A stretch of 64,000 nt of DNA from a virus, in IMG/VR virus record IMGVR_UViG_3300035687_000001. One strand, 5' to 3'. Under the pieces are notes generated by a model. The model saw only the letters and a list, made by a program, of their open reading frames with translations, did no database searches and was not told the DNA's origin. The position numbers were made by a program, and so were the translations under genes. Numbering within the stretch: the stretch's first letter is position 1; every line of letters begins with the position of its first letter. Below are positions 4,595 to 62,916 of the stretch, one piece after another.

Positions 4595-5122
4595 ATGGTG
4601 AACCCGGAACGGGCGCTGGCCCTGACCGAGGCCGTCAAGCTGCACGCCGGATCGTTCGGCGACAAACAGTTCGAGGAAGACCGAGATGCGGTGCTCGCCA
4701 CGGCGGTGCGCTTCTACGCCTTCCTCACCGGCCCCGCGACGGCAACAGTGGCCTTCGGCCCCATCGTGAAGCAGAACACTCTGGAACCCACCGGAAAGGC
4801 TGGTACTGCCATGGCCCAGATCCACGACGACGAGGAATTCGACGTCTCGCTCACCGCTGCCGACGCCAAAGGCGCCGAGGTCCTCGACAAGGCGGGCGAC
4901 ACCTCCGACGACCCGGCGTTCGTCAGCTCGGACGAGAGCGTCTTCACCTACCGGATCGACTCGAACGACCCGCGCCAGGCCACGGTCGTCGCCGGGATGC
5001 CGGGCTCGGCGGTCGGCACGATCACCCTGGGCAGCATCACGGTGACCCACGCGGTGGACGTGGTCGCGGGCGACGTCGCCGTGGTGAACGTCAGCGAGGG
5101 TGCGGCCCGCAAGCAGGCCTGA
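4595..5122 (+). CDS. hypothetical protein with Ig-like (Big_2-type) C-terminal region
   Basis: Only well-formed plus-strand ORF in a gap between minus CDS; C-terminus VVAGMPGSAVGTITLGSITVTHAVDVVAGDVAVVNV resembles bacterial Ig-like repeats; followed by hairpin 5166-5219. Confidence 0.7.
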   Translation: MVNPERALALTEAVKLHAGSFGDKQFEEDRDAVLATAVRFYAFLTGPATATVAFGPIVKQNTLEPTGKAGTAMAQIHDDEEFDVSLTAADAKGAEVLDKAGDTSDDPAFVSSDESVFTYRIDSNDPRQATVVAGMPGSAVGTITLGSITVTHAVDVVAGDVAVVNVSEGAARKQA

Positions 5123-14295: not shown

Positions 14296-14356
14296 CCTCC
14301 GGTGCGGTCCTTGAACTGACAAGACCCACACTACCCGAGTGGGTAGTGTGGGTCAA
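14296..14356 (-). promoter_or_regulatory. promoter/operator/leader cassette P7 (extended-palindrome subfamily)
   Basis: Box 14296-14307; leader hairpin 14306-14326 (CTGAC loop); 32-bp palindrome gacccacactaccc-N4-gggtagtgtgggtc 14323-14354; TTGACC(14351-14356)-17-TAGTGT(14328-14333). Confidence 0.65.
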
Positions 14357-14370
14357 GCCTACTGGCTGGG

Positions 14371-17931: not shown

Positions 17932-18197
17932 ACGCCCTCCGGCTGACTCGACGGGAACTCGTCCGGCCACCCGGTCTCCTTGACCTTGAGGTAGTCCTCG
18001 AAGGCCTTGCGCTGGGCGTCGTCCCAGTACTGGGACGCGTCGCGCAGCGCGGTCAGCAGGCTGGCGACCTGATCGACCGCTTCGCAGGTGGTGGCCTCTT
18101 CGAGCAGGCTCAGCGCACGGTCGGCCTGCTGGACGGTCAGTGCCGCCACGCCGTGCGTCCGCATCCGTTCGATGAGCGCTGCGGTGGTGCCATCCAT
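17928..18197 (-). CDS. hypothetical protein (89 aa)
   Basis: ATG 18197 after GAAGGAGGA; MDGTTAALIERMRTHG.. Confidence 0.7.
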   Translation of the reverse strand: MDGTTAALIERMRTHGVAALTVQQADRALSLLEEATTCEAVDQVASLLTALRDASQYWDDAQRKAFEDYLKVKETGWPDEFPSSQPEGV

Positions 18198-18265
18198 CGG
18201 ATCCTCCTTCAGTCGGTGCTTCACGACTTCCCTTCGCTCTCGTGGCGGGTGCTCGACCGGCGTGG

Positions 18266-18481
18266 TCACGACTCCATCGCTTCGCGCAGGACATACAGGC
18301 CCTCCGAGGTGATGTTGCACTTCCAGACCCGGTCCTCGTCCGCCAGCTCGGCGGTGATCAAGCCGCGCCGGACGAGGGCGTCGAGCGTCCGGACGTAGGT
18401 CGACTTCGCCAGGAACGTGACGTCCGGCCCGCGCCAGTCGACCTCGGAGAGCACCTGGTGCTGGGTCTCGCTGAGCTTCAT
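18266..18481 (-). CDS. winged-helix (MarR-like) DNA-binding protein (71 aa)
   Basis: Track ORF; TYVRTLDALVRRGLITAE....ITSEG pattern typical of wHTH. Confidence 0.65.
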   Translation of the reverse strand: MKLSETQHQVLSEVDWRGPDVTFLAKSTYVRTLDALVRRGLITAELADEDRVWKCNITSEGLYVLREAMES

Positions 18482-19553: not shown

Positions 19554-19859
19554 TCAGGCAGGAACGTCGAACAGGTCGACGATCTTGCCGTCGTACAGCT
19601 CGCCCTCGACCTGCTCGGCGTTGGTCCAGCCCGGCACCGTGAGCGTGCCCACGAGCATGTCCACGGTCGGGTCGTCGAGGTAGCCCTCCACCGTGGCCTC
19701 GTCGGCCAGGTCGTCGAGCAGCCGGACCGGCTCGTCCTCGGGGTTGGTGTAGTTGAGCCAGCTCAGCTTTTCGGCGAGGTCGGCCAGGGCCGTCTCGTTG
19801 CCGTCCACCTGAAGCCAGAAGGTGCCCTTGACGCTGTCGAGGTACTTGCGGAACTGCAT
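19554..19859 (-). CDS. hypothetical protein (101 aa), paralog of 20155..20535
   Basis: Track ORF; shares FWLQVDGNET, L-VP-W and LY-G...LF with 20155..20535. Confidence 0.75.
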   Translation of the reverse strand: MQFRKYLDSVKGTFWLQVDGNETALADLAEKLSWLNYTNPEDEPVRLLDDLADEATVEGYLDDPTVDMLVGTLTVPGWTNAEQVEGELYDGKIVDLFDVPA

Positions 19860-19870
19860 GATCGTCTCCC

Positions 19871-20158
19871 TCAGTCGTCGTCGGTGTCGGCGGCGCGCAG
19901 CTCGCGCATCGCGTCGTCGTAACCGACCCAGTTGTCCACGCCGTACTGCTCCAGGGCGTTGAGCTTGTCCTGGTCCTCGATCAGGCGCTTGTACCGGTTG
20001 GGGCCGACCACCACGTGCGTGGACAGGTAGCCCGCGATCCGGCGCAGATCCTGTTGCACCTCGTCTCCGGTGCTGCGAGCGCCGGACTTGCGGTCCTGCT
20101 CGTCGAACCAGTCGGCCAGGAAACGCAGCTTGCCCGCGTCGTCGTCGATCCTGCTCAC
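19871..20158 (-). CDS. hypothetical protein (95 aa)
   Basis: Track ORF; GTG 20158 in GTGA overlap. Confidence 0.7.
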   Translation of the reverse strand: MSRIDDDAGKLRFLADWFDEQDRKSGARSTGDEVQQDLRRIAGYLSTHVVVGPNRYKRLIEDQDKLNALEQYGVDNWVGYDDAMRELRAADTDDD

Positions 20159-23630: not shown

Positions 23631-23836
23631 GCTGGTCCCGATCCCTTCGGCGCACGGCCGTGCGCCAGCTCGTTGTTGGACCAGCTCGTCATGGCATGGT
23701 TCGGCCCGGCGAAGTGCGCGTGGTCGATGCAGATGAGGTAGCCGTTGACCACGGTCAGCGCGGCGTCCAGCCAGGCCACCGGGCGCTCCCCGGGTTCCAG
23801 GAAGAGGCACACGCTGCACCGCAGCGGCTGGCGCAT
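23627..23836 (-). CDS. hypothetical protein (69 aa)
   Basis: ATG 23836 (MRQPLRCSVCLFLEPG) overlaps stop of 23836..24267. Confidence 0.6.
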   Translation of the reverse strand: MRQPLRCSVCLFLEPGERPVAWLDAALTVVNGYLICIDHAHFAGPNHAMTSWSNNELAHGRAPKGSGPA

Positions 23837-24267
23837 CACGCCGGGCTCCCTGCGGGCAGCTGGCGGCCGATCTCCCAGTTGTCGTAGACGGTGCCGCCGG
23901 TGCTGGTGCGCATGTACGGCAGGAAGACCTGCGGCGTGGTGACCATCTCCGTCTGGATGATCGCCATCTGCGCGCGTACCCAGTCCCGCAGGATGCGCCA
24001 GGCCACACGCTCGGCGTGCTCGAAGGTCCAGTACCGGCGGTCGACCTTCTGGGCCTTCAGCGTGGCACTCACCTTGTCGACGTGCACCGGCAGCGTGTAG
24101 TGGTACGTGTCGCCGTCGAAGACGAGCGCGAAGGTCAGCGCGGTGACGCGCCGGGCGTCGTCGTACTCGGTGGCGATGCCCCGGGCACCGGCCTTGATCA
24201 GCATCTCGGTGATCTCGTTGACGCTCTTGGTCGGCGCCACGGTCGAGGTGTAGTTCGCGATGGGCAT
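23836..24267 (-). CDS. hypothetical protein (143 aa)
   Basis: ATG 24267 (MPIANYTSTVAPTKSVNEIT); track ORF 23836..24369 trimmed. Confidence 0.7.
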   Translation of the reverse strand: MPIANYTSTVAPTKSVNEITEMLIKAGARGIATEYDDARRVTALTFALVFDGDTYHYTLPVHVDKVSATLKAQKVDRRYWTFEHAERVAWRILRDWVRAQMAIIQTEMVTTPQVFLPYMRTSTGGTVYDNWEIGRQLPAGSPA

Positions 24268-39452: not shown

Positions 39453-39514
39453 CCTCCGGTGCGGTCTCTCTAACTGACAAGACCCACACTACCCGTCTGG
39501 GTAGTGTGGGTCAA
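39453..39514 (-). promoter_or_regulatory. promoter/operator/leader cassette P21 (extended-palindrome subfamily)
   Basis: Box 39453-39464; leader hairpin 39463-39484; 32-bp palindrome 39481-39512; TTGACC(39509-39514)-17-TAGTGT(39486-39491); near-identical to P22. Confidence 0.65.
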
Positions 39515-39528
39515 GCCTTAGGCGACAA

Positions 39529-39921
39529 TCACACCCGACCCATCAGCATCGCGGCGGCGCGCTTCGAGCCTTCGAGGCGGGCCGACTGCTCGCGGAGCTT
39601 CTCCTTCAGCGCCAGGCGCTCGCGATAGGCCAGCTCGGCCAGCGCCCGCTCGCCCAGGCCGCCCATGTCGGTCTCGGCGACGCGCCACAGCATGTGGTCG
39701 GTGAAGTGGGCGAAGTTGCGAACCTCGACTCCCAGGATGTCGATCACGCGGACCAGCACGTTGCGCCAGCGGTCGCCATCGGCGGTGAGCAGGGTGACCG
39801 GGACCACCTTGTCAGCGCCCAGGCCGTTGAGGTTCGGGCGCTGCACCAGCCAGCCGGTGACGCTCTGCGGGATGAGCCGGACGTAGACATAGCCGGTGAT
39901 GAGCTGCGGGGTGTGGGACAC
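39529..39921 (-). CDS. hypothetical protein (130 aa)
   Basis: Track ORF; GTG 39921 5 nt after GGAGG of cassette P22. Confidence 0.7.
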   Translation of the reverse strand: MSHTPQLITGYVYVRLIPQSVTGWLVQRPNLNGLGADKVVPVTLLTADGDRWRNVLVRVIDILGVEVRNFAHFTDHMLWRVAETDMGGLGERALAELAYRERLALKEKLREQSARLEGSKRAAAMLMGRV

Positions 39922-41069: not shown

Positions 41070-42017
41070 TCAGGCGGCCGTGGTGGCCTGCTCGTCGGTC
41101 TCCTCGGTCTTGGCCTGCTCGCGGCCGAGGATCATGTCAGCGGCCTTCTGGGCCTTCCCGGCGGCCACGATGATCGCGCGCGGGTCCTCCTTGATCGTCT
41201 TGATCCAGGAGGCCAGGTAGGCGGCCGAGTTGTCGAGAGTGGCCTGGATGCCGGTCTCGGCGCAGAGGAACGCGGCGCCCATCTCGGCGATCAGCTCCTC
41301 GCGGCCGTAGGCGTGGCTGCCGAAGGCGTTGCCCCGGCTCTCCTTACGGTCCAGGCGGTGCTCGGCGGCGGTCGAGTGGGTCAGCTCGTGGAAGAGGGTC
41401 GCGTGGTACTCGTCGAGCCCCTTGAAGCTCTCCACCGGCGGCATCGTGAGCACGTCCGTGGACCAGGTGAAGTGGGCCGAGTCGCCGCCGTGCTCAATGA
41501 CCGGCTTGGCGGCCCAGGCGTCCACCACGGACTGCGCGGCCGCGTGGCGCTCTTCGGCACTGGGGACCGGGCGGGCGACCGGGAAGGCGTCCTTGGGCAG
41601 CTTCTCGATGCCCTCGGTCTGGTCCAGGTTGAACAGGTAGAAGTGCTTGAGCAGCGGGATCATCTTCTTCTTGCCGGTCGCCTCGTCCTCGATCGGCAGC
41701 AGCTTCCAGAAGGTGACCAGGGTGCCCTTCTGCGTGCCCTTCTCGCCCTTCAGGCGGCCGCCAAGCTTGGCCATCTGGTTGAAGGTCAGCCAGTACGCGC
41801 TGCGGTAGTTCTTCTCGGCCTGCTCCAGGCCCAGCAGGATGGCGTTGACGCCCCGGTAGGCCTTGCGCGAGGAGAACGACTTCGGCGCGCCGGTGACGCT
41901 GTCCCACGGCTTGCTCCACGGCGCGGTGCCGTTCTCCAGCGCGGCCAGGATCTTGGTGGTGACGACGTCGTAGACATCGACCTTGGGCTTGCGGGTGGCG
42001 GTGGTCTTCGCGGCCAT
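41070..42017 (-). CDS. ardC: ArdC-type anti-restriction protein (ssDNA-binding N-domain + zincin metalloprotease domain)
   Basis: Track ORF; N-terminal DVYDVVTTKILAALENGTAPWSKPW and C-terminal HELTHSTAAEHRLDR motifs. Confidence 0.85.
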   Translation of the reverse strand: MAAKTTATRKPKVDVYDVVTTKILAALENGTAPWSKPWDSVTGAPKSFSSRKAYRGVNAILLGLEQAEKNYRSAYWLTFNQMAKLGGRLKGEKGTQKGTLVTFWKLLPIEDEATGKKKMIPLLKHFYLFNLDQTEGIEKLPKDAFPVARPVPSAEERHAAAQSVVDAWAAKPVIEHGGDSAHFTWSTDVLTMPPVESFKGLDEYHATLFHELTHSTAAEHRLDRKESRGNAFGSHAYGREELIAEMGAAFLCAETGIQATLDNSAAYLASWIKTIKEDPRAIIVAAGKAQKAADMILGREQAKTEETDEQATTAA

Positions 42018-45341: not shown

Positions 45342-45387
45342 GATCCCTCCAGGGGTGGTTCAGGATTGCGTTCTCGCAGGGTATGTT

Positions 45388-45406
45388 ACCCCGTAGCCTA
45401 CGGGGT
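45388..45406. promoter_or_regulatory. 19-bp palindrome ACCCCGTAG-C-CTACGGGGT in divergent control region
   Basis: 9+1+9 perfect inverted repeat between divergent CDS 44898..45341 (-) and 45422..45691 (+); TATCCT at 45410-45415 ends 6 nt before ATG 45422. Confidence 0.45.
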
Positions 45407-45421
45407 GAGTATCCTACGGTC

Positions 45422-45691
45422 ATGACTTACGACTCCGAGCGTGACGAGACCCCGAGCTACGAGGGCGAGGTGACCGAGGTCCGTGAGGGCATGCGCCTGC
45501 GGACCAAGGTCGTCATCGGCGCGCTCGGCGCCGGGGTCGGACTGGCAGCGACCGGGAACTGGATGCTGCTGATCATGCTGATCTGCGCCTACGTGACCTG
45601 GATGTTCGTGCGGACGTGGCTGGAGAAGCGCCGTCGGGACCGGACCTGGCGAGACGGCGGCGGAACGATCGAGCGAGGAGGGATCCTGTGA
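45422..45691 (+). CDS. small membrane protein (89 aa)
   Basis: ATG 45422 (MTYDSERDE..), two adjacent TM helices VVIGALGAGVGLAATGNWMLLIMLICAYVTWMF; no SD, possibly leaderless; GTGA-coupled to next CDS. Confidence 0.6.
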   Translation: MTYDSERDETPSYEGEVTEVREGMRLRTKVVIGALGAGVGLAATGNWMLLIMLICAYVTWMFVRTWLEKRRRDRTWRDGGGTIERGGIL

Positions 45692-46494
45692 AGCTGCCCG
45701 ATGGCGGCAAGCTCGTGTCCTGGGCGGGCTTCATCTTCGGCACGGCGGTGTCGGTCGCCGCGAACGTGCTGGCCGCCCGGATCCCGCCGGATCACGCCGC
45801 GCCGGACTGGGCGCCCCGCATTGACACCCAGCTGGGCTCGGCCGTGTGGCCGCTGGCTCTGCTGCTCTCGATCGAGGTGCTCGCCCGGGTCGCCTGGCCC
45901 AAGGGCCTCTGGTGGAGCGTCGCGCGCTTCGGCGGCCTGAGCATCGTGGCCAGCGGCGCGTTCGTCATCTCCTACCAGCACATCAACCACGTGCTGGCCT
46001 CGTGGGGTTACGAGTGGCTGAGTCAGGGCGTCGGCCCGCTGGTGATCGACGGCCTGATGGTCATCTGCGGTGTGGCGATGCTGGCCAAGCCGGGCACGCT
46101 GCGCAAGCTGCTCGCGGGCAAGGACGAGCCGGAGCAGGACGTCACCCCCAAGGCCCCGAAGTCGATGCTGCGGCCGGTGAACGAGTCGAACATCGTCGGT
46201 CTGGGCAAGCCCTCGCCTGCCGAGGAGTCGCTGACCCTGGCCGACCTGGAGCACGACGTCCCGGTGCAGCGCACCAACGGCCACCGGGTGTCGACCGCGC
46301 TGAAGAGCGGCCCGAAGGCGCCCGCGCGCCGGACGTCGGGCAAGAGCGACGAGGAGATCGCCGCCGTGCTGCGCGCGGAGATCGAGCGCCGGGAGAGCCC
46401 GGACCTCACCAAGCGTGGCGTGATGACGCGATTCGGCATCGGCGCGCCGCGCTGGGCCCAGATCACCGAGCTGCTGAAGAAGGAGGAGTCGTGA
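45688..46494 (+). CDS. DUF2637-like membrane protein with C-terminal HTH-like tail
   Basis: GTG 45688 5 nt after GAGGAGGG; four TM helices, AFVISYQHINHVLASWGY..GPLVIDGLMV signature; track ORF 45616..46494 trimmed. Confidence 0.75.
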   Translation: MKLPDGGKLVSWAGFIFGTAVSVAANVLAARIPPDHAAPDWAPRIDTQLGSAVWPLALLLSIEVLARVAWPKGLWWSVARFGGLSIVASGAFVISYQHINHVLASWGYEWLSQGVGPLVIDGLMVICGVAMLAKPGTLRKLLAGKDEPEQDVTPKAPKSMLRPVNESNIVGLGKPSPAEESLTLADLEHDVPVQRTNGHRVSTALKSGPKAPARRTSGKSDEEIAAVLRAEIERRESPDLTKRGVMTRFGIGAPRWAQITELLKKEES

Positions 46495-48548
46495 GCGGAG
46501 AGTCAAAGGGGGTGGTGAAGGAGATCCTCGGCACGGCGGGCGGAGTCCTCGTTGCCGAGGGGATCGGGCGGGGGTGGAAGCGCGGCCGCAGGCTGATGTT
46601 CCGCTGGCGGCGCGCGCTCACCCCGCTGTGGTTCGGGTTCCTGATCTTCCTCACCTGCGTCATCTGGCGCTGGCAGATCCCGCAGTGGTGGCCGGTCGTG
46701 CTGACCGTGCCGGTCGGCGGCCTGCTGCTGGCGATCTTCGGGCCGAAGCTGTCGGACCGCTGGTCCCGGGTGGCGATGGCGTTGGTGCCCAGCGGGCTCG
46801 ACAAGGGCAAGGACGGGGTGCTGGACCGGCTCGTGGAGCGGGTCTACTTCGGCACCTTGACGACCTACATCGGCACCTACATGGTCCTGCGGATCGTGGA
46901 CGGCTCCAGCTCGTTCTCGGGCTGGATGTGGCAGCTCGGCGTGGCGGGCTTCGGCGGCGCCTGGTGGTACCACCGCCGGGTGCGGGTCGCCGGGCGCGCC
47001 GACCGATTCGCGAAGAAGTGGCCGAAGCTGTCCGACAAGACGACCTGCCCGCCCCGGCTCGTGCCGCTGGTCAACTCGAAGGTGGTCGACGCGCGGGCGT
47101 ACGGGAAGACCTCGAAGCTGAAGATCCGGCTCGGCGAGGGCCACACCGTGGACTCGGTGGCGCACCTACGTGACGCGCTGGCGAGCTTCTTCGGCATGCG
47201 GCCGCAGTCGGTGTTCATCGCGCCGGACGAGGATCAGGCTCGCAATGTGATGATCACGTTCCTGCCGAAGGACCCCTGGAGCGGCAAGATCGCGCACCCG
47301 GTCTTCACCGGCGACGTCAAGCCGGGCGAGACCAGCCTGAAGTCGATGGGCAAGCGCTTCGCCATGGGTCTGTACGCCCACGGCGAACGCATCATGTACC
47401 AGCTCCAGCACACGCTCGTCGTCGGCGCGTCCGGCTCGGGCAAGTCGGGCTGGCTGCACTCACTGATGACGTGGCTGGTCAGCTTCTGCGACGTCGTGGT
47501 GGTCGGCATCGACATGGCCGCCGGGGCGACCCTGGGCGTCTGGCGCAAGACCCTGGCGCTCCCGCTCGCCGAGGAGATCGACGCGGCGATCATCATCCTG
47601 GAGCGCGTCTTCGGCGTGATCCGGGACCGGGAGGCCCGGCTGGGTCTGGCCTCGGAAGACGACGATGACGCCGAGGACAGCTTCGAGCCCTCGCGTAAGA
47701 CCCCGTGGCTGATCCTGGTGATCGACGAGTTCCCGGACCTGCTGGCCGAGGCGAAGGCGACCACGAAGTACAACGAAGACGGCAAGGCCGACGGCAACTA
47801 CCTGGCCTACGTCATCGCCCTGCTGTCGCGCATCGCGAAGAAGGCGCGCAAGTGCGGGGTCCGGATCGTCATCGCCTCTCAGAACGGGACCAAGGCGGAC
47901 CTGGGCTCGAAGGAGATGCAGGCCCAGCTGCGCGCGATCGTGGGTCTGAGCCTGGACCCGCAGCAGTCGAAGAACCTCTGGCAGAACGACATGCACCGGG
48001 GCTGGAACTCGACGAACCTACGGGACGGCCAGTTCCTCCTGAAGGACGACGAGCACGGGACTCCGGACCCGGGCAAGGGGTACTGGGTCGAGAACAAGGA
48101 CCGCCGGGACCTCGTCAAGAAGGTGGCGCCGAAGGGGTACCGCGAGGTCTATCTGGAACCGACCGCGTGGGCCATCCTCACCGGCGAGGTCGAGCCCGAG
48201 ACCGTCGAGGGTGAAGTCATCGCGGAGGAGACCTTCGGTCCCGAGTACGCGGTCCTGGAGTACCTCCGGGTCGAGGCCAAGGACGGGGCGAAGGTGGAGA
48301 CCATCTCCGACGTCCTGACCCGGGCCAAGGAGGAGACCGGCGGGTCCGGGCCCGGTACCAGCCGGGCGACGATCTACCGGCACCTGGAGAAGCTGGAGAA
48401 GGGCGAGCTGGTCATCCGCAACGGCGGCGGCGAGGGCTTCTGGAAGGCGGCCGCTGTCACGACCACCACGCCGGTGCCCGAGCCCCGTACGGAGATCGAG
48501 GGGCCGGTGGTGATCGCCAGCATCCAGGGCGAGGCGATGGCGGAGTAG
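46491..48548 (+). CDS. TraB/FtsK/SpoIIIE-family DNA translocase (N-terminal TM, ATPase, C-terminal wHTH)
   Basis: GTG 46491 after AAGGAGGA, GTGA-coupled; Walker A GASGSGKSG, Walker B LILVIDEFPDL, VRIVIASQ; C-terminal SRATIYRHLEKLEKGELV wHTH; track ORF 45846..48548 trimmed. Confidence 0.85.
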   Translation: MSGESKGVVKEILGTAGGVLVAEGIGRGWKRGRRLMFRWRRALTPLWFGFLIFLTCVIWRWQIPQWWPVVLTVPVGGLLLAIFGPKLSDRWSRVAMALVPSGLDKGKDGVLDRLVERVYFGTLTTYIGTYMVLRIVDGSSSFSGWMWQLGVAGFGGAWWYHRRVRVAGRADRFAKKWPKLSDKTTCPPRLVPLVNSKVVDARAYGKTSKLKIRLGEGHTVDSVAHLRDALASFFGMRPQSVFIAPDEDQARNVMITFLPKDPWSGKIAHPVFTGDVKPGETSLKSMGKRFAMGLYAHGERIMYQLQHTLVVGASGSGKSGWLHSLMTWLVSFCDVVVVGIDMAAGATLGVWRKTLALPLAEEIDAAIIILERVFGVIRDREARLGLASEDDDDAEDSFEPSRKTPWLILVIDEFPDLLAEAKATTKYNEDGKADGNYLAYVIALLSRIAKKARKCGVRIVIASQNGTKADLGSKEMQAQLRAIVGLSLDPQQSKNLWQNDMHRGWNSTNLRDGQFLLKDDEHGTPDPGKGYWVENKDRRDLVKKVAPKGYREVYLEPTAWAILTGEVEPETVEGEVIAEETFGPEYAVLEYLRVEAKDGAKVETISDVLTRAKEETGGSGPGTSRATIYRHLEKLEKGELVIRNGGGEGFWKAAAVTTTTPVPEPRTEIEGPVVIASIQGEAMAE

Positions 48549-48552
48549 GGCC

Positions 48553-48566
48553 GTTTGCGCAGGTCA
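48553..48566 (-). repeat. TGACCTGCGCAAAC repeat, inverted copy
   Basis: Plus strand gtttgcgcaggtca; exact reverse complement of 48674-48687. Confidence 0.7.
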
Positions 48567-48590
48567 ACGGCCCATGAGCGGCTTAGAGTG

Positions 48591-48630
48591 CAGAAGGCCC
48601 CGGGTGTGCTCGACCACCCGGGGCCTTCTG
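48591..48630. terminator. strong hairpin terminator after translocase gene
   Basis: Perfect 16-bp stem cagaaggccccgggtg/cacccggggccttctg, 8-nt loop. Confidence 0.75.
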
Positions 48631-48673
48631 CTGTCCGCCCTGCGAAGAAGGACATCTTAGCCTAACACGCGCC

Positions 48674-48687
48674 TGACCTGCGCAAAC
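48674..48687 (+). repeat. TGACCTGCGCAAAC repeat, direct copy
   Basis: Exact 14-mer. Confidence 0.7.
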
Positions 48688-48753
48688 GTGCCTCGCGCGC
48701 CTGCGAACACGTACGTACGTACTGCATGCGCACACGCTACGTGCGCGCTGCGC

Positions 48754-48777
48754 GTCTCACGTCGCATGTCTCACGTC
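48754..48777 (+). repeat. tandem GTCTCACGTC repeat (14-nt period)
   Basis: gtctcacgtcgcat gtctcacgtc. Confidence 0.65.
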
Positions 48778-48842
48778 ATGCGTAACACGCGCAGGCGCGG
48801 ACGCTGCGAGAACACGAGATTGATCAAATATGCCCAGGTCAC

Positions 48843-48856
48843 TGACCTGCGGAAAC
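48843..48856 (+). repeat. TGACCTGCGGAAAC repeat, direct copy (1 mismatch)
   Basis: 13/14 match to 48674-48687. Confidence 0.65.
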
Positions 48857-48911: not shown

Positions 48912-48944
48912 AAGAGCCCCCGGCACCGTCTCCCGGGGGCTCTT
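48912..48944. terminator. hairpin terminator after minus-strand CDS 48960..49235
   Basis: 12-bp stem aagagcccccgg/ccgggggctctt, 9-nt loop; TTT follows on minus strand. Confidence 0.7.
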
Positions 48945-48959
48945 CTCGACGCAGCGTGA

Positions 48960-49235
48960 CTAGCTCTGGTCGTCCCAGCGGAACAGCCAGCGGCCGTTGC
49001 CGTAGTCCAGCACGGCACCGGGGATCCCGTACTGAGCGTGGGTCTCGGTCAGGATCCGGGTCACCACGGGACCGGCCTGCTGGCACAGGAAGGCGTCGAC
49101 CTTGCGTCCCCAGACCCAGCCCATGATCCCGCTGGGATCGCGGTACCGCTCGAAGGTGACGTGGAACAGAGCGTCCTGCAACCACTCGGAGTCGCTCTGG
49201 TCCCGGGTCGTGTCCCGCACGGCGTCGAGTTCCAT
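48960..49235 (-). CDS. hypothetical protein (91 aa)
   Basis: ATG 49235 (MELDAVRDTTRDQ); weak RBS, alt GTG 49250; track ORF 48960..49481 trimmed. Confidence 0.55.
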   Translation of the reverse strand: MELDAVRDTTRDQSDSEWLQDALFHVTFERYRDPSGIMGWVWGRKVDAFLCQQAGPVVTRILTETHAQYGIPGAVLDYGNGRWLFRWDDQS

Positions 49236-49294
49236 GATGAGGTGTTCCACGCTCGGCGCGAGACCCAGGTTGGGTCCGGTCCCAGTACCGGCGC

Positions 49295-49682: not shown

Positions 49683-50387
49683 TCAATTGGTCAGAAGCTG
49701 GACGATCTCCCACCACGGCCTTCCGGCGGTCATCAGCGTGGCGGTGCCCAGCAGGCCGACCCCCACGGCCAGGCCCATCGTCACGGCGCCCTCGCCGAGA
49801 TTCACCCACGACCAGCGGGACAGGGTCTTGACCCGGCCCTTCTCGCGGTGGCCGCCGACGCGGAAGCGGGCGATCTCGGGGCAGGTCCAGACCGAGAACC
49901 AGCGCTTGCCGTTGTGCTCGACGAAGGGGGCCCAGAGCGGGATCCCGCTCAGCGTGATGCTGTCCCCCCACAGGTGCGCGAAGTGGCCCAGGGTCATGGC
50001 CAGCGAGGCCCACAGGGCCCAGTCGGACGCGGGACTGGCCGAGACCCCGAAGTAGGTCCCGAGACCCACCAGGACGCCCCAGACGGCCGTGTGGGTCAGG
50101 GTCCGGTGACCCGGGAATCGGCCCATCCGGTCCTTGGGGGTCCGGGTCGCCTCCCAGACGATGATCGAGAGCTTGTTGATCAGCCAGGCCAGGATCCAGG
50201 TGATCGGTCCCAGCAGCTTCGCGGCCTTGGCCTTCGGCATGTCCAGGTCCGGCAGCAGGGCCCCGATCCCGACGATCCCGACGAAGACCAGGGTCACCAC
50301 CGCGTTGGCGGGACCCGGGTGCGGGACCACCGGGGCCACGGCGAGCGCGACCACGTACCCGGAGAGCTGGTGTCCCGTGTGTTCCAT
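49683..50387 (-). CDS. membrane-bound metal-dependent hydrolase (YdjM/DUF457-like)
   Basis: Track ORF; multiple TM helices with conserved His/Asp (LLPDLD, GHRTLTH, LGHFAHLWGDSIT..GIPLWAPF). Confidence 0.75.
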   Translation of the reverse strand: MEHTGHQLSGYVVALAVAPVVPHPGPANAVVTLVFVGIVGIGALLPDLDMPKAKAAKLLGPITWILAWLINKLSIIVWEATRTPKDRMGRFPGHRTLTHTAVWGVLVGLGTYFGVSASPASDWALWASLAMTLGHFAHLWGDSITLSGIPLWAPFVEHNGKRWFSVWTCPEIARFRVGGHREKGRVKTLSRWSWVNLGEGAVTMGLAVGVGLLGTATLMTAGRPWWEIVQLLTN

Positions 50388-53652: not shown

Positions 53653-53904
53653 TCAGACGCGGGAGCGGGTGAGCTTGCGACGCTCGTCGGGGGTCGTGCC
53701 GCCGAAGATGCCGTGGTCGAGACCGTTCTCCAGGGCGAAGCCCAGGCAGACCTCCCTGACCGGGCAGGTGCCGCAGACCGCCTTCGCCTGCGCCGTCTGC
53801 CGCTCGCCGGGCCCGAACTCGGAGACCGGGAAGAACAGCTCCGGGTCCTCGTCCTTGCACGCGGCGAAGTCGCTCCACGCGAACTGTCCGATGCGCTCGT
53901 TCAT
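53653..53904 (-). CDS. whiB: WhiB-family Fe-S transcription factor
   Basis: Track ORF; four Cys (C..CGTCPVREVC) plus GIFGG turn and basic tail; GAGGAGG before ATG. Confidence 0.9.
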   Translation of the reverse strand: MNERIGQFAWSDFAACKDEDPELFFPVSEFGPGERQTAQAKAVCGTCPVREVCLGFALENGLDHGIFGGTTPDERRKLTRSRV

Positions 53905-60312: not shown

Positions 60313-60369
60313 CCTCCAGGTGGTGGGCGGGTCACCACTCATACTACCCGAATGGGTAGGGTAGGTCAA
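60313..60369 (-). promoter_or_regulatory. promoter/operator/leader cassette P30
   Basis: Variant box cctccaggtggt 60313-60324; core 60344-60359; TTGACC(60364-60369)-17-TAGTAT(60341-60346). Confidence 0.6.
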
Positions 60370-60680
60370 CGAGGCATCTGGACACCGGCGCGCTGGTGCG
60401 TCCGCTCGAAGGCCGAGCGGCTCATCCCGAGCTTGACGATGATCTCCATCCGCTTCAGGCCCTGCTCGGCCAGGAAGGTGGTCTCCTCGATGACCTCGGC
60501 CGCGCGGCGGTAGACCGTCGGATAGTCGTCGAGCACGCCGTGCCCCCTGGCCCAGGCGAAGCAGCGGCGGCAGAGGTGCCGGGACTTGTGCACGACGAAG
60601 CCCGGGGGCGGCTGAGTTTCCACCGTCCCCGGGACCATCGGCCAGTCGCACCTCTTGCAAGGCGGCAGGCTGGATTTCAC
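60366..60680 (-). CDS. DNA-binding protein (N-terminal CxxC..CxxC zinc ribbon + C-terminal HTH)
   Basis: Track ORF; CKRCDW..CRRCFAW then EIIVKLGMSRSAFERTHQRAG. Confidence 0.65.
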   Translation of the reverse strand: MKSSLPPCKRCDWPMVPGTVETQPPPGFVVHKSRHLCRRCFAWARGHGVLDDYPTVYRRAAEVIEETTFLAEQGLKRMEIIVKLGMSRSAFERTHQRAGVQMPR

Positions 60681-60887: not shown

Positions 60888-60949
60888 CCTCCAGTGCGGC
60901 GGTGTTCCTTGACCTCTCCAACACTACCCAACCGGGTAGTGCGTGTCAA
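60888..60949 (-). promoter_or_regulatory. promoter/operator/leader cassette P31
   Basis: Box 60888-60899; core 60924-60939; TTGACA(60944-60949)-17-TAGTGT(60921-60926); -35 overlaps terminase stop. Confidence 0.6.
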
Positions 60950-62916
60950 CGCCTCCGGCGGTGCGGGTTGCGCGCGGGGTTCAGGCCTCCGGCGCGCACC
61001 CGCGACCGGCCGCCGGGGATCAGCTGGTCGAAGACCTGCCGGTCGGCCTCCTGGCGCTGGTACGGGTTGAAGCCGCCCTGCTGGCCGGTCACGATGTTCA
61101 TCTCGCGCAGCATGCCCGCCTGCCAGTTCCGGACCTGCTCGCCGAGGATGGTCCAGACCACTTCCATCATGCACCTGGCCACGTCGTCATGGACAACGGG
61201 CCCGGTGTCCTGGTGCACGACGCGGTTGGTGGTCGCGGTGGTCTTCAGCTGGAGGAACTTCAGCTCCAGCTCGGCGGTCTCGTACCAGGGCGCCTCGACC
61301 CAGCCCTGGTTGATCGCGACCTTGAAGCACTCGGCCACCTGCCAGTTGTGCTTGGCGTCGGACTTCTGCTCGAAGATCGTCATGCGCTTCGGCGCGCGGT
61401 TCTGCCGGACCTTGCGGTTGAGCCGCTGGATCGGCATGGCCGAGTTGTGCTGGTCGAAGGTGAACTCGTCGATCTTGAAGCCCCAGATGATCTCCCACAG
61501 CTCGACGTCCACGACCTGGATGTAGTCGATCGTGTGGTCGGGGAACTCGGCCGGATCCCAGTGGTGGAGCAGATCGAAGCGGCAACGGAGGAAGCCGTCC
61601 TCGTGCTCCTCGGCGTGGCCGACCGCGAGGCCGAAGTTGTCGTTGACCTTCGATGGGTCCGCGTGTCCTTTGTAGAACGTCGTGAGGTTCTTGGCCGTGC
61701 GGGTCATCGCGAGATCGCTCTGGAAGATCGCCTCGACCTTCTTCGGGTCCAGGTAGGCGTCCACGACCGACTGCCAGTGCGAGCGCCGCTCGACGGCGAA
61801 GGTGTCGGGGTTGGCCCGCTCCAGCTTCTCCATCCGCTCGTCGTACTCCTGGATGGCGCCCTTGAGCCGCTGGAAATTCGGGTGCGGGCGCTCCAGGTAC
61901 TCCCCGAGGTCGCCGGTGAACTCCGCCGGGAAGACGGGCAGCATGTGCGCGTCTTTCCAGTCGTAGTAGATCTCCCAGCTGGCCAACTGGAGCATCATCA
62001 TCTCGGGGTACTCGGGGTTGCCCTCCTCGTCGAAGGCCAGCGTCATCTCCCAGTTCGCGTAGAACTGGCCGATCTGCTGCCAGGGGCTCGACGGATCGAT
62101 GATGAAGCCGTCCATCTTGAACTGGTCGAGCGACGGCGTCGCGCTGCCGTAGACCTCTTCCGCCGACCGCCCTGCGCCCGAGGGCACCACGTGCGCCATC
62201 TCGTCGAAGCCGAGCCCGAAGGATGCCGGGCCACGCGCGGACATCAGCGTGGCCTCCTTCGGCTGGATCGTGAAGGTCGCCATGTCCCGCGCGGTGTTGA
62301 TCCCGCGCTGGTTCTGCCGCCGCAGCCGGACGAAGTCGTGCGGGGCGTAGATGGTCAGGTTCTCGCCGAGCGACCGGGAGATGTACTTGGCGAAGCACGG
62401 GGCGCCCTGGATGACGTTGACGACGTCCTTCCAGAGGTTCTCCCGGGCCTGCTGCTTCTTCCCGGCGTAGATGAACATCGCCAGCTGCTTGTCGCGGTCG
62501 ATCCCGTAGTACTCCTGGGGATCGCCCTTGGCCATGAAGCGCCAGAGCACGTAGGCCATGGCCAGCGCCGAGACGTAGCCCTTCCCGGCGCGGCGGCCGA
62601 GGACCAGCAGGACCTCGCGGAAGTAGAAGTAGCCCTTGAGCCGGAGCGAGGCCATCCGCTGGCGGATCTTCGGCACGATGCCGTTGTTCCCGTGGCGATC
62701 GAAGGAGTCCTCCCACTCGTCGATGACCATGTGGTCGTACTCGGTGAGGAGGTCGTTGCGCAGGAAGATGACCTTGAGCAAGGTCGCCTGACGCGGGTAG
62801 AGTTGCCCCCGGCCACACCAGCGCGGGCTGATCGCGAAGGTGATGGGGTCAGGAACCGGCAGCCCCGTGAACGCTGCGAAGTCCACGGGGCTGAAGGCCG
62901 GAGGCGAGAGGGTCAT
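60946..62916 (-). CDS. terL: terminase large subunit
   Basis: ATG 62916 in ATGA overlap with 62913..63500; Walker A-like LGRRAGKGY, Walker B GFDEMAH, C-terminal nuclease-type region; first 113 codons of track ORF 60946..63255 are R/G-rich shadow. Confidence 0.9.
   Translation of the reverse strand: MTLSPPAFSPVDFAAFTGLPVPDPITFAISPRWCGRGQLYPRQATLLKVIFLRNDLLTEYDHMVIDEWEDSFDRHGNNGIVPKIRQRMASLRLKGYFYFREVLLVLGRRAGKGYVSALAMAYVLWRFMAKGDPQEYYGIDRDKQLAMFIYAGKKQQARENLWKDVVNVIQGAPCFAKYISRSLGENLTIYAPHDFVRLRRQNQRGINTARDMATFTIQPKEATLMSARGPASFGLGFDEMAHVVPSGAGRSAEEVYGSATPSLDQFKMDGFIIDPSSPWQQIGQFYANWEMTLAFDEEGNPEYPEMMMLQLASWEIYYDWKDAHMLPVFPAEFTGDLGEYLERPHPNFQRLKGAIQEYDERMEKLERANPDTFAVERRSHWQSVVDAYLDPKKVEAIFQSDLAMTRTAKNLTTFYKGHADPSKVNDNFGLAVGHAEEHEDGFLRCRFDLLHHWDPAEFPDHTIDYIQVVDVELWEIIWGFKIDEFTFDQHNSAMPIQRLNRKVRQNRAPKRMTIFEQKSDAKHNWQVAECFKVAINQGWVEAPWYETAELELKFLQLKTTATTNRVVHQDTGPVVHDDVARCMMEVVWTILGEQVRNWQAGMLREMNIVTGQQGGFNPYQRQEADRQVFDQLIPGGRSRVRAGGLNPARNPHRRRR

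Follow-up and report, generated by a model that had tools for sequence, protein, structure and literature searches.

The 64,000-nt stretch of DNA analysed here (hereafter the window) comes from the IMG/VR virus record IMGVR_UViG_3300035687_000001 and carries, within positions 45342 to 48630, an operon of three open reading frames (ORFs) for predicted membrane proteins. ORF3 appears to encode a motor that resembles TraB, the double-stranded DNA (dsDNA) translocase of actinomycete plasmids, ORF2 a DUF2637-type membrane protein with a C-terminal helix-turn-helix (HTH), and ORF1 a small membrane protein. We found this trio in a whole lineage of uncultivated phages, together with a conserved non-coding element of about 75 nt behind the translocase gene. 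What the analysis establishes is how the proteins fold and which domains they have, how their homologies rank, that the module is conserved and syntenic throughout the lineage, and that the cis element exists and has a set geometry. Taken together, trio and site could constitute a TraB-like dsDNA translocation apparatus, possibly one that spreads phage DNA between hyphal compartments or cells. We favour this reading tentatively and give it not quite even weight.

The family FtsK_SpoIIIE (PF01580) matches ORF3 with an E-value of 3e-8. The AlphaFold model (mean predicted local distance difference test score, pLDDT, of 77) contains helices at the N-terminus, a motor of the alpha-beta type and, at the C-terminus, a winged helix-turn-helix (wHTH). 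The N-terminal membrane helices cover residues ~9-166, with hydrophobic helices at 41-59 and 69-87, then amphipathic helices up to residue 166, and an invariant WWYHRRVR motif closes the membrane region. The FtsK-type motor extends over residues ~190-545 and contains Walker A at 312-319 (VGASGSGKSG) and Walker B at 411-417 (LVIDEFPDL). Alignment of 26 homologues showed G312, G317, K318 (the Walker A lysine), S319 and E413 (the Walker B glutamate) to be invariant. The winged helix (~584-655) was recognised by a weak HTH_20 match and by PDB profile matches to wHTH domains; the model places helices at 584-637 followed by two strands at the C-terminus, and the sequence SRATIYRHL lies in the expected recognition-helix region. 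An earlier note on this DNA, made from the sequence letters, had proposed exactly such a TraB-like architecture with a transmembrane N-terminus, an FtsK motor and a winged helix, and families, model and profiles agree with it. From its sequence and model, ORF3 is predicted to be an FtsK-fold motor that is anchored in the membrane, carries a winged helix at the C-terminus and resembles TraB.

The relationship to TraB was assessed against other motors of this fold. A PDB profile search matched ORF3 to the FtsK motor (E=3e-9), and Foldseek ranked FtsK motors at the top (E ~1e-18 to 3e-19 over ~390 columns), followed by the conjugation coupling protein TcpA and then by EccC/EssC. The best NCBIfam match was plasmid_TraB, with 53.2 bits and E=1.8e-14 for residues 64-485 against model positions 11-406. 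EccC and CedB ranked behind TraB, and the NCBIfam model for chromosomal FtsK did not match ORF3. TraB was also the top NCBIfam family in 4/5 relatives tested and in Gilgamesh gp10, an FtsK-like protein of a Streptomyces phage; the most distant homologue, P0074, had no NCBIfam match. The earlier note had set TraB against FtsK as possible kin of the translocase, and it is TraB that scores best among the named families, ahead of EccC and FtsK. When the ORF3-family profile was aligned to four individual proteins by hhalign, the best match was Gilgamesh gp10 (E=1.7e-17), followed by pIJ101 Tra (E=1.2e-12, with an alignment running through the wHTH), a Kutzneria TraB from an integrative element (E=1.1e-11; this protein reaches 787 bits on the TraB model, near its cutoff) and pZL12-71 (E=4e-10).

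A tblastn search with ORF3 returned no phage match at E<=1e-5; relaxing the thresholds brought up phage matches that were all weak, and plasmids gave four, weak as well. At the nucleotide level, sequenced phages and plasmids yielded no match. An exhaustive search with the ORF3 profile retrieved 126 representatives when the limit was set at E<=1e-30 and 1,358 when it was widened to E<=1e-10, and among the best 150 matches listed most have the same length as ORF3 and align over the full length. In two homologues, an insert splits the Walker A region at profile position 312, namely in P0026 (821 aa) and P0208 (1040 aa). The insert of P0026 is an intein (PF14890), and the split alignment and extra length of P0208 point to an intein there as well. 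Inteins tend to occupy conserved active sites.

The trio as a whole was found in ~25 related loci, in IMG/VR genomes of ~60 kb and ~150 kb whose translocases are 35-94% identical. The recurring order is a gene for a small membrane protein, then the DUF2637 gene (~270 aa) and last the translocase gene (~640 aa), antiparallel to minus-strand neighbours, and in the 61-kb phages the module is located between the terminase and portal genes. The earlier note had regarded the module as inserted. This view did not hold, as ~25 loci carry it at the same syntenic position and its composition is ordinary; lineage-wide conservation and synteny therefore speak for an old, fixed module and no recent insertion. 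The trio is ubiquitous across these related phage loci, and ubiquity was part of an outcome that the note had listed as speaking against a transfer function.

The genomes that carry the module are those of tailed phages. The window encodes a 656-aa terminase large subunit (phrog_2, E=6e-10) on the minus strand at 60946-62916, and a 61-kb relative with the same module contains terminase (1e-71), portal (9e-85) and tail protein genes; the element is therefore a tailed phage. The 61-kb relative also has N-terminal sequences resembling a lysin and a DnaB-type helicase, unconfirmed by family search. The nearest cellular homologues of the module belong to Amycolatopsis, Kutzneria and Nocardia rather than to Streptomyces. 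From its sequence we read the window as a piece of a large tailed phage whose host would be a high-G+C actinobacterium, not necessarily Streptomyces. The genome classes of ~60 kb and ~150 kb have one common core.

The second conserved component of the system is the non-coding element downstream of ORF3. We built an element profile from 16 loci and ran nhmmer also on four loci outside the build. Exactly one copy was detected per phage locus, always on the translocase strand (E 3e-18 to 3e-5), and no phage locus whose sequence extends far enough beyond the pump gene is without it. In 22/24 loci its start falls within a range from 7 nt ahead of the translocase stop codon to 232 nt behind it. The profile had no match in the Amycolatopsis, actinomycete integrative and conjugative element (AICE), pIJ101, phiC31, pZL12 or Gilgamesh loci. 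The layout is fixed, with one or two GTCTCR hexamers on the 5′ side, a central palindrome (GCRCGT-A-ACGYGC, then AG) and one to three inverted YGAGAY hexamers on the 3′ side. The arms of the palindrome co-vary (GCGCGT/ACGCGC versus GCACGT/ACGTGC), and the GTCTCR/YGAGAY hexamers are ~17-fold denser within the element than elsewhere in the loci. In the window, direct copies of GTCTCAC start at 48754 and 48768, the palindrome-like core GCGTAACACGCGCAGGCG occupies 48780-48797, and CGAGAA/CGAGAT copies lie downstream of the core.

We considered several functions for this element. A structured RNA was rejected, as Rfam gave only sub-threshold noise and RNAalifold found no consensus structure (-0.8 kcal/mol); the element is therefore best read as a DNA site. 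Guidance of the motor by GTCTCAC, in the manner of the FtsK-orienting polar sequences (KOPS), was rejected too. The motif is rare and local, neither dispersed nor skewed, with five copies in the window (four forward, one reverse), 2/5 of them within the element. A strand bias of GATCAA traced back to codon usage. The plasmid pWTY27 provides a closer parallel. Its clt takes in 16 bp at the 3′ end of traA and the 159 bp next to them, and TraA binds the direct and inverted repeats of 7 bp that it contains (PMC3583192), and TraB of pSVH1 recognises 8-bp repeats via its wHTH (PMC4447253). By position and repeat make-up, the element resembles such a site and is a candidate clt-like loading site. The wHTH motif SRAT[IV][YF]R is nearly invariant in the element-bearing loci, while P0074 has SRDRVNR; two Amycolatopsis loci, about as distant as P0074, are without the element.

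ORF2 is the better defined of the two membrane partners. Its AlphaFold model comprises four long helices (residues 6-132, pLDDT ~88), a disordered linker and a three-helix HTH at 221-267 (pLDDT >90). DUF2637 (PF10935) matches 24/26 aligned homologues at E<0.01; the ORF2 of the window reaches 17.3 bits, under the gathering cutoff of 22.8, and its positional counterparts in the phage locus L002 (23.2 bits) and the Amycolatopsis locus L027 (78 bits) exceed it. Family matches and model agree with the four-transmembrane, DUF2637-like protein with an HTH tail that had been described from the open reading frame. In Amycolatopsis, Kutzneria and Nocardia, chromosomal proteins with the annotation DUF2637, HTH or 'terminase gpP N-terminus-related' share 50-66% identity with the membrane domain, and tblastn with ORF2 returned no match in the INPHARED phage collection or in plasmids. 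One Kutzneria relative lies near genes for a GntR regulator, TraA-like, TraB, SSB and Prim-Pol proteins; judged from its gene content, this region with DUF2637 and TraB looks like an integrative conjugative element. In apparent Amycolatopsis prophages, a DUF2637 relative directly precedes the translocase, with a GntR regulator nearby. A 688-aa neighbour of a Nocardia DUF2637 gene was considered as a translocase and rejected, being not FtsK-like. DUF2637 has scarcely been studied; a literature search turned up just two papers that mention the family.

For ORF1, family searches gave no significant match. The protein has an acidic N-terminus, a single hydrophobic stretch of 34 residues and a basic RRRDR tail, and most related loci have at this position a gene for a short hydrophobic protein (52-89 aa) that likewise ends in a basic tail. 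Two transmembrane helices had been assigned to ORF1. We found one hydrophobic stretch, long enough for two helices, which from the sequence probably forms a two-helix hairpin. In L002 (8756-9184, plus strand), with equivalents in L003, L005 and L006, an extra plus-strand gene lies between the ORF1- and DUF2637-type genes. In the L002 and L006 groups of 61-kb phages, it encodes a soluble protein of 142-145 aa, and a similar N-terminus (MPIANYTS...) is found in the window on the minus strand at 23836-24267.

We compared the module with known transfer systems. TraB, Tra and TraA of actinomycete plasmids and AICEs (pSVH1 TraB, pIJ101 Tra, pWTY27 TraA; NF041214) are proteins of ~650-690 aa, and ORF3 shares with them the membrane N-terminus, the FtsK/SpoIIIE motor and the C-terminal wHTH. 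TraA of pWTY27 carries two transmembrane helices (PMC3583192), and its clt, like the element described here, is a repeat-bearing non-coding site beside the 3′ end of the translocase gene. However, the motor of ORF3 is only 24% identical to that of pIJ101 Tra. Unlike the plasmid systems, this one is borne by a tailed phage and known from sequence alone, the accessory genes stand ahead of the pump gene, and the window has no GntR gene. FtsK-like genes have been annotated in large isolated Streptomyces phages (Gilgamesh gp10, Daubenski gp105), for which we found no assigned role in the literature. Gilgamesh gp10 ('FtsK-like DNA translocase'; 637 aa, in a 129-kb phage), whose gene is followed by one for a membrane protein, is similar to ORF3 in having TraB as best NCBIfam match, but identity is ~22% and its locus is without the conserved downstream element. 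The phage-plasmid pZL12 (phage ZL12), reported to move by conjugation via its tra gene, likewise combines an FtsK/SpoIIIE-type gene with two adjacent genes (pZL12-71 to -73). It represents a different, very distant lineage, however, with neighbours of 766 aa and 398 aa that are not DUF2637 proteins. It is also known to be a plasmid prophage; in the surveyed sequence of our lineage, genes for a plasmid life or for lysogeny did not turn up.

A relationship of ORF2 to the Spd proteins, which mediate plasmid spread, was also considered. Like SpdB2, ORF2 is a predicted four-transmembrane integral membrane protein with a DNA-binding part, encoded beside the translocase. The earlier note had assumed Spd-type partners, but no similarity to pIJ101 SpdB was detectable (hhalign probability 0.2%). 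With phiC31 gp25 only a weak fold match was obtained (E=2e-3, template modelling score, TM, of 0.28; hhalign 2.8%), and kinship of ORF2 with SpdB or SpdB2 by sequence was rejected. Thoma et al. (2015) suggested that Spd-like proteins on actinophages might aid the spread of phage DNA (PMC4447253).

A more distant version of the module occurs in two Amycolatopsis loci, L026 (8540-13651) and L027 (8606-13124), with translocases 33-36% identical. Here a small membrane protein, a membrane protein of 152-173 aa, the DUF2637 protein and the translocase follow each other, with a divergent GntR regulator gene, and in L026 the translocase is broken into two ORFs. The module adjoins apparent tail genes and genes resembling comEC, holA and rpsT. 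Each of these loci resembles a prophage that bears, at its edge, a TraB module of the kil-kor type.

How could such an apparatus work? The operon would be transcribed from its own promoter, apart from the ~30 opposite-strand cassette promoters described below, and ORF3 would assemble into a membrane-anchored hexameric motor. Its winged helix, possibly with the HTH of ORF2, would recognise the repeats of the element on the phage genome. The motor would then pump phage dsDNA over the membrane or a septal cross-wall, via or beside a channel of ORF2 and ORF1, so that an infection or a prophage could reach neighbouring hyphal compartments or cells without virions. The parts that we infer are that DNA is bound at the element, which way and to where it is moved, and what the phage gains from this. 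The most far-reaching form of this idea is a lineage of tailed actinophages with a second, virion-independent route, in which the motor loads at the clt-like site and pumps dsDNA through septa, through hyphal contacts or into prespores, and the infection would thereby pass through a mycelium or into its spores in the manner of a conjugative plasmid; this form appears rather unlikely to us.

Several observations weigh against a TraB-like spreading apparatus. The score of ORF3 is far under the TraB equivalog cutoff (53.2 against 800 bits). The FtsK/SpoIIIE-like protein of pZL12 itself reaches only 20 bits on this model, so the cutoff marks a narrow subfamily. No integrase, partition system or other temperate or plasmid sign was found in the 64 kb of the window or the 36 kb surveyed of the 61-kb relative, and no GntR kil-kor regulator gene near the module in the window or the phage loci. 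As lysogeny and plasmid genes were not seen, conjugation of a resident element is unsupported and only spread during infection is plausible. The element is displaced by 0.8-2.7 kb from the pump gene in L012 and L022, and it could alternatively be an operator, or a promoter for a short transcript ending at the next hairpin. Similarity of ORF2 to the Spd proteins failed, as described above, and we found no published test of the function of any phage-encoded TraB-like gene. Finally, cross-walls are sparse in the vegetative hyphae of Streptomyces, and inside a compartment the phage spreads by replication anyway.

The alternative that survives best is a hijack of host development, in which the pump mimics the septal translocases FtsK or SffA and, with the site as an address label, loads phage genomes into prespores, whose spores would then carry the phage, or disturbs host chromosome segregation and septation. 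ORF3 corresponds to FtsK in fold and in the order of its domains, including a gamma-like wHTH of the kind that reads short DNA motifs in chromosomal FtsK/SpoIIIE. WhiB- and Lsr2-type regulators are found in the neighbourhood, papers on Streptomyces phages tie FtsK-like and WhiB-like phage genes to host development, and one addressed site would suit the selective loading of phage genomes. However, wherever a family member has a significant NCBIfam match, TraB beats chromosomal FtsK, and ORF3 is without the long FtsK linker or a divisome-type N-terminus. The candidate motif sits at one site, unlike the dispersed or skewed KOPS and the SpoIIIE recognition sequences (SRS), and the DUF2637 partner is typical of mobile elements. 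We regard this alternative as unlikely.

The membrane location of all three products and the separate promoter palindrome also fit an entry or exclusion device, in which the pump completes uptake of the phage's own long genome once a first segment is inside, or blocks or expels superinfecting phage DNA at the membrane of infected or lysogenic cells. Opposite-strand membrane-protein genes of actinophages are frequently immunity or exclusion genes. Yet the module lies mid-genome, between terminase and portal, and not at a defined leading end, and a sequence-specific wHTH with a single site on the phage's own genome speaks against the expulsion of foreign DNA. Searching for known defence systems (PADLOC) gave generic P-loop matches only, and we consider such a device improbable.

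If the element were centromere-like, the pump might instead distribute copies of an extrachromosomal prophage or a replicating genome along the hyphae. The GTCTCACG...CGTGAGAC repeats look like split halves of actinobacterial parS (GTTTCACGTGAAAC), the site is single-copy, and extrachromosomal prophages of actinobacteria are known. There is no gene for ParA, ParB or a replication initiator near the module, however, the surveyed sequence gave no sign that these phages are temperate, and FtsK-type motors are not known as partition ATPases, which makes partition very improbable. A protein-secretion ATPase of the type VII kind (EccC/EssC), to which ORF3 has weaker matches, can hardly be expected, as ORF3 has a single P-loop ATPase domain followed by a DNA-binding-type wHTH, whereas the matched EccC/EssC structures have several ATPase domains, and no ESX substrates were seen nearby; inert cargo from an integrative element, given the same slight weight, is ruled out by conservation at 35-94% identity in ~25 loci with intact motifs and inteins.

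A call based on G+C content at third codon positions (GC3) gave 142 genes for the window, of which four are on the plus strand, namely an isolated gene at 4595-5122 and the trio (Table 1); all others are on the minus strand. The trio is therefore the only multi-gene plus-strand unit, as the earlier note had it. The coupling of the three genes by GTGA and their coordinates were confirmed as well, by the sequence and by the gene calls of relatives. Both junctions are 4-bp overlaps, GTG 45688 with TGA 45689-45691 and GTG 46491 with TGA 46492-46494, and such overlaps recur in relatives with independent gene callers. The start of ORF3 at 46491 is backed by an N-terminus kept across the 26 homologues. 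The G+C content of the window is 67-68% from end to end, and the composition of the trio is the same as that of its surroundings. The only compositional change is an inversion of the strand skews at the trio, which a switch of the coding strand would be expected to bring.

Table 1. Coordinates of the three-gene module and of nearby signals in the window.
Feature	Position	Strand	Description	Remark
Divergent intergenic region	45342..45421	+	putative module promoter	sequence read directly
ORF1	45422..45691	+	89-aa small membrane protein	gene call
ORF2	45688..46494	+	268-aa DUF2637-type membrane protein with C-terminal HTH	
ORF3	46491..48548	+	685-aa TraB/FtsK-like dsDNA translocase	
Operon hairpin	48590-48631	+	perfect 17-bp stem	conserved in close relative L001
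Conserved single-copy non-coding element, ~75 nt	48755..48827	+	candidate cis site (clt-like loading site or operator)	
Palindrome GCCCAGGTCA-C-TGACCTGCGG	48831-48856	+	3′ of conserved element	
Hairpin	48912-48944	-	closes convergent minus-strand unit (gene 48960-49250)	

The hairpins that had been noted after the operon and at the end of the convergent unit are both present in the sequence. A simple terminator scan missed them because T-runs are absent; the first probably ends transcription of the plus-strand operon. A 20-nt inverted repeat (48547-48566 / 48674-48693, 90% complementary) flanks this hairpin on both sides, and its arms hold the motif GCGCAGGTCA/TGACCTGCGC, found again in the palindrome that follows the conserved element. 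The CTGACCTGCGG motif of this palindrome reappears after the element in a subset of loci. TGACCTG/CAGGTCA occurs in 24 copies in the window, 4/24 of them inside 48557-48850.

A consensus promoter and terminator scan made no call in the divergent region upstream of ORF1 or at the module. By direct reading, this region contains a -35-like hexamer (TTACCC, 45386-45391) and a -10-like hexamer (TATCCT, 45410-45415) just 6 nt ahead of the ATG, and from this spacing the module mRNA is probably leaderless. It further contains a palindrome, TTACCCCGTAG-C-CTACGGGG at 45386-45406, which can also be written ACCCCGTAG-C-CTACGGGGT for 45388-45406, and related TACCCC...GGGG motifs stand upstream of the module in other loci. 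In contrast, ~30 minus-strand genes are preceded by a cassette, TTGACC-N-CTACCC-N4-GGGTAG, in which a -10 hexamer, TAGNGT, overlaps the palindrome, while a conserved leader, CCGCACYGGAGG, comes next, ahead of the start codon (for example 39489-39530, 14331-14370 and 60344-60385, minus strand). This repetition suggests a single phage regulator governing dozens of small transcription units. The earlier note had found no CTACCC cassette upstream of the trio; the exact CTACCC-N4-GGGTAG is indeed absent, but a related palindrome is present at 45386-45406. As the module palindrome is unlike the cassette, separate control of the module is plausible from the sequence.

Several neighbouring genes deserve mention. 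A YdjM-family membrane hydrolase (PF04307, E=1e-18; 49683-50387, minus strand) is conserved 2-5 genes downstream of the translocase and, being kept in most of the loci L001-L023, may be functionally linked to the membrane module. An ArdC-like protein (ArdcN and zincin MPTase-PolyVal domain, E=1e-38) is encoded on the minus strand at 41070-42017, 3.3 kb upstream of the translocase module, and also in the 157-kb L001; ArdC belongs to an anti-restriction family typical of conjugative plasmids. At 53653-53904 (minus strand) we recognised a WhiB-like N-terminal sequence by eye, and in the syntenic region of L001 Pfam calls WhiB and Lsr2 domains (18115-18366 and 19577-19936). WhiB and Lsr2 are developmental and nucleoid regulators of the host type. 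In the 61-kb relatives, the genes for the terminase large subunit and the portal are ~15 kb apart, with small genes filling the space (L002 16744-18537 and 1-1976). In the window there is no portal gene within 45 kb of small genes, a very unusual widening of this gap.

FtsK-like genes in Streptomyces phages, the reported conjugation of pZL12 and the idea of Spd-like spread were already known. What is new is a fixed trio with a DUF2637-HTH partner that is core to an uncultivated phage lineage in two genome-size classes, and a conserved candidate cis site after the pump gene. The spread of phages inside multicellular, compartmented bacteria is poorly understood, and the locus offers a concrete, testable system of a three-gene operon, a candidate site of ~75 nt and a nearly invariant wHTH motif. 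Whatever its role, the pair of site and motor is a clean model of the way in which motors of the TraB kind are directed to a replicon, and it would give a first functional handle on DUF2637. If the phage DNA is indeed pumped between compartments or cells, the boundary between conjugation and infection would be blurred, the persistence of plasmid-type transfer genes in lytic-looking phages would be explained, and tools for moving large DNA between actinomycete hyphae could follow.

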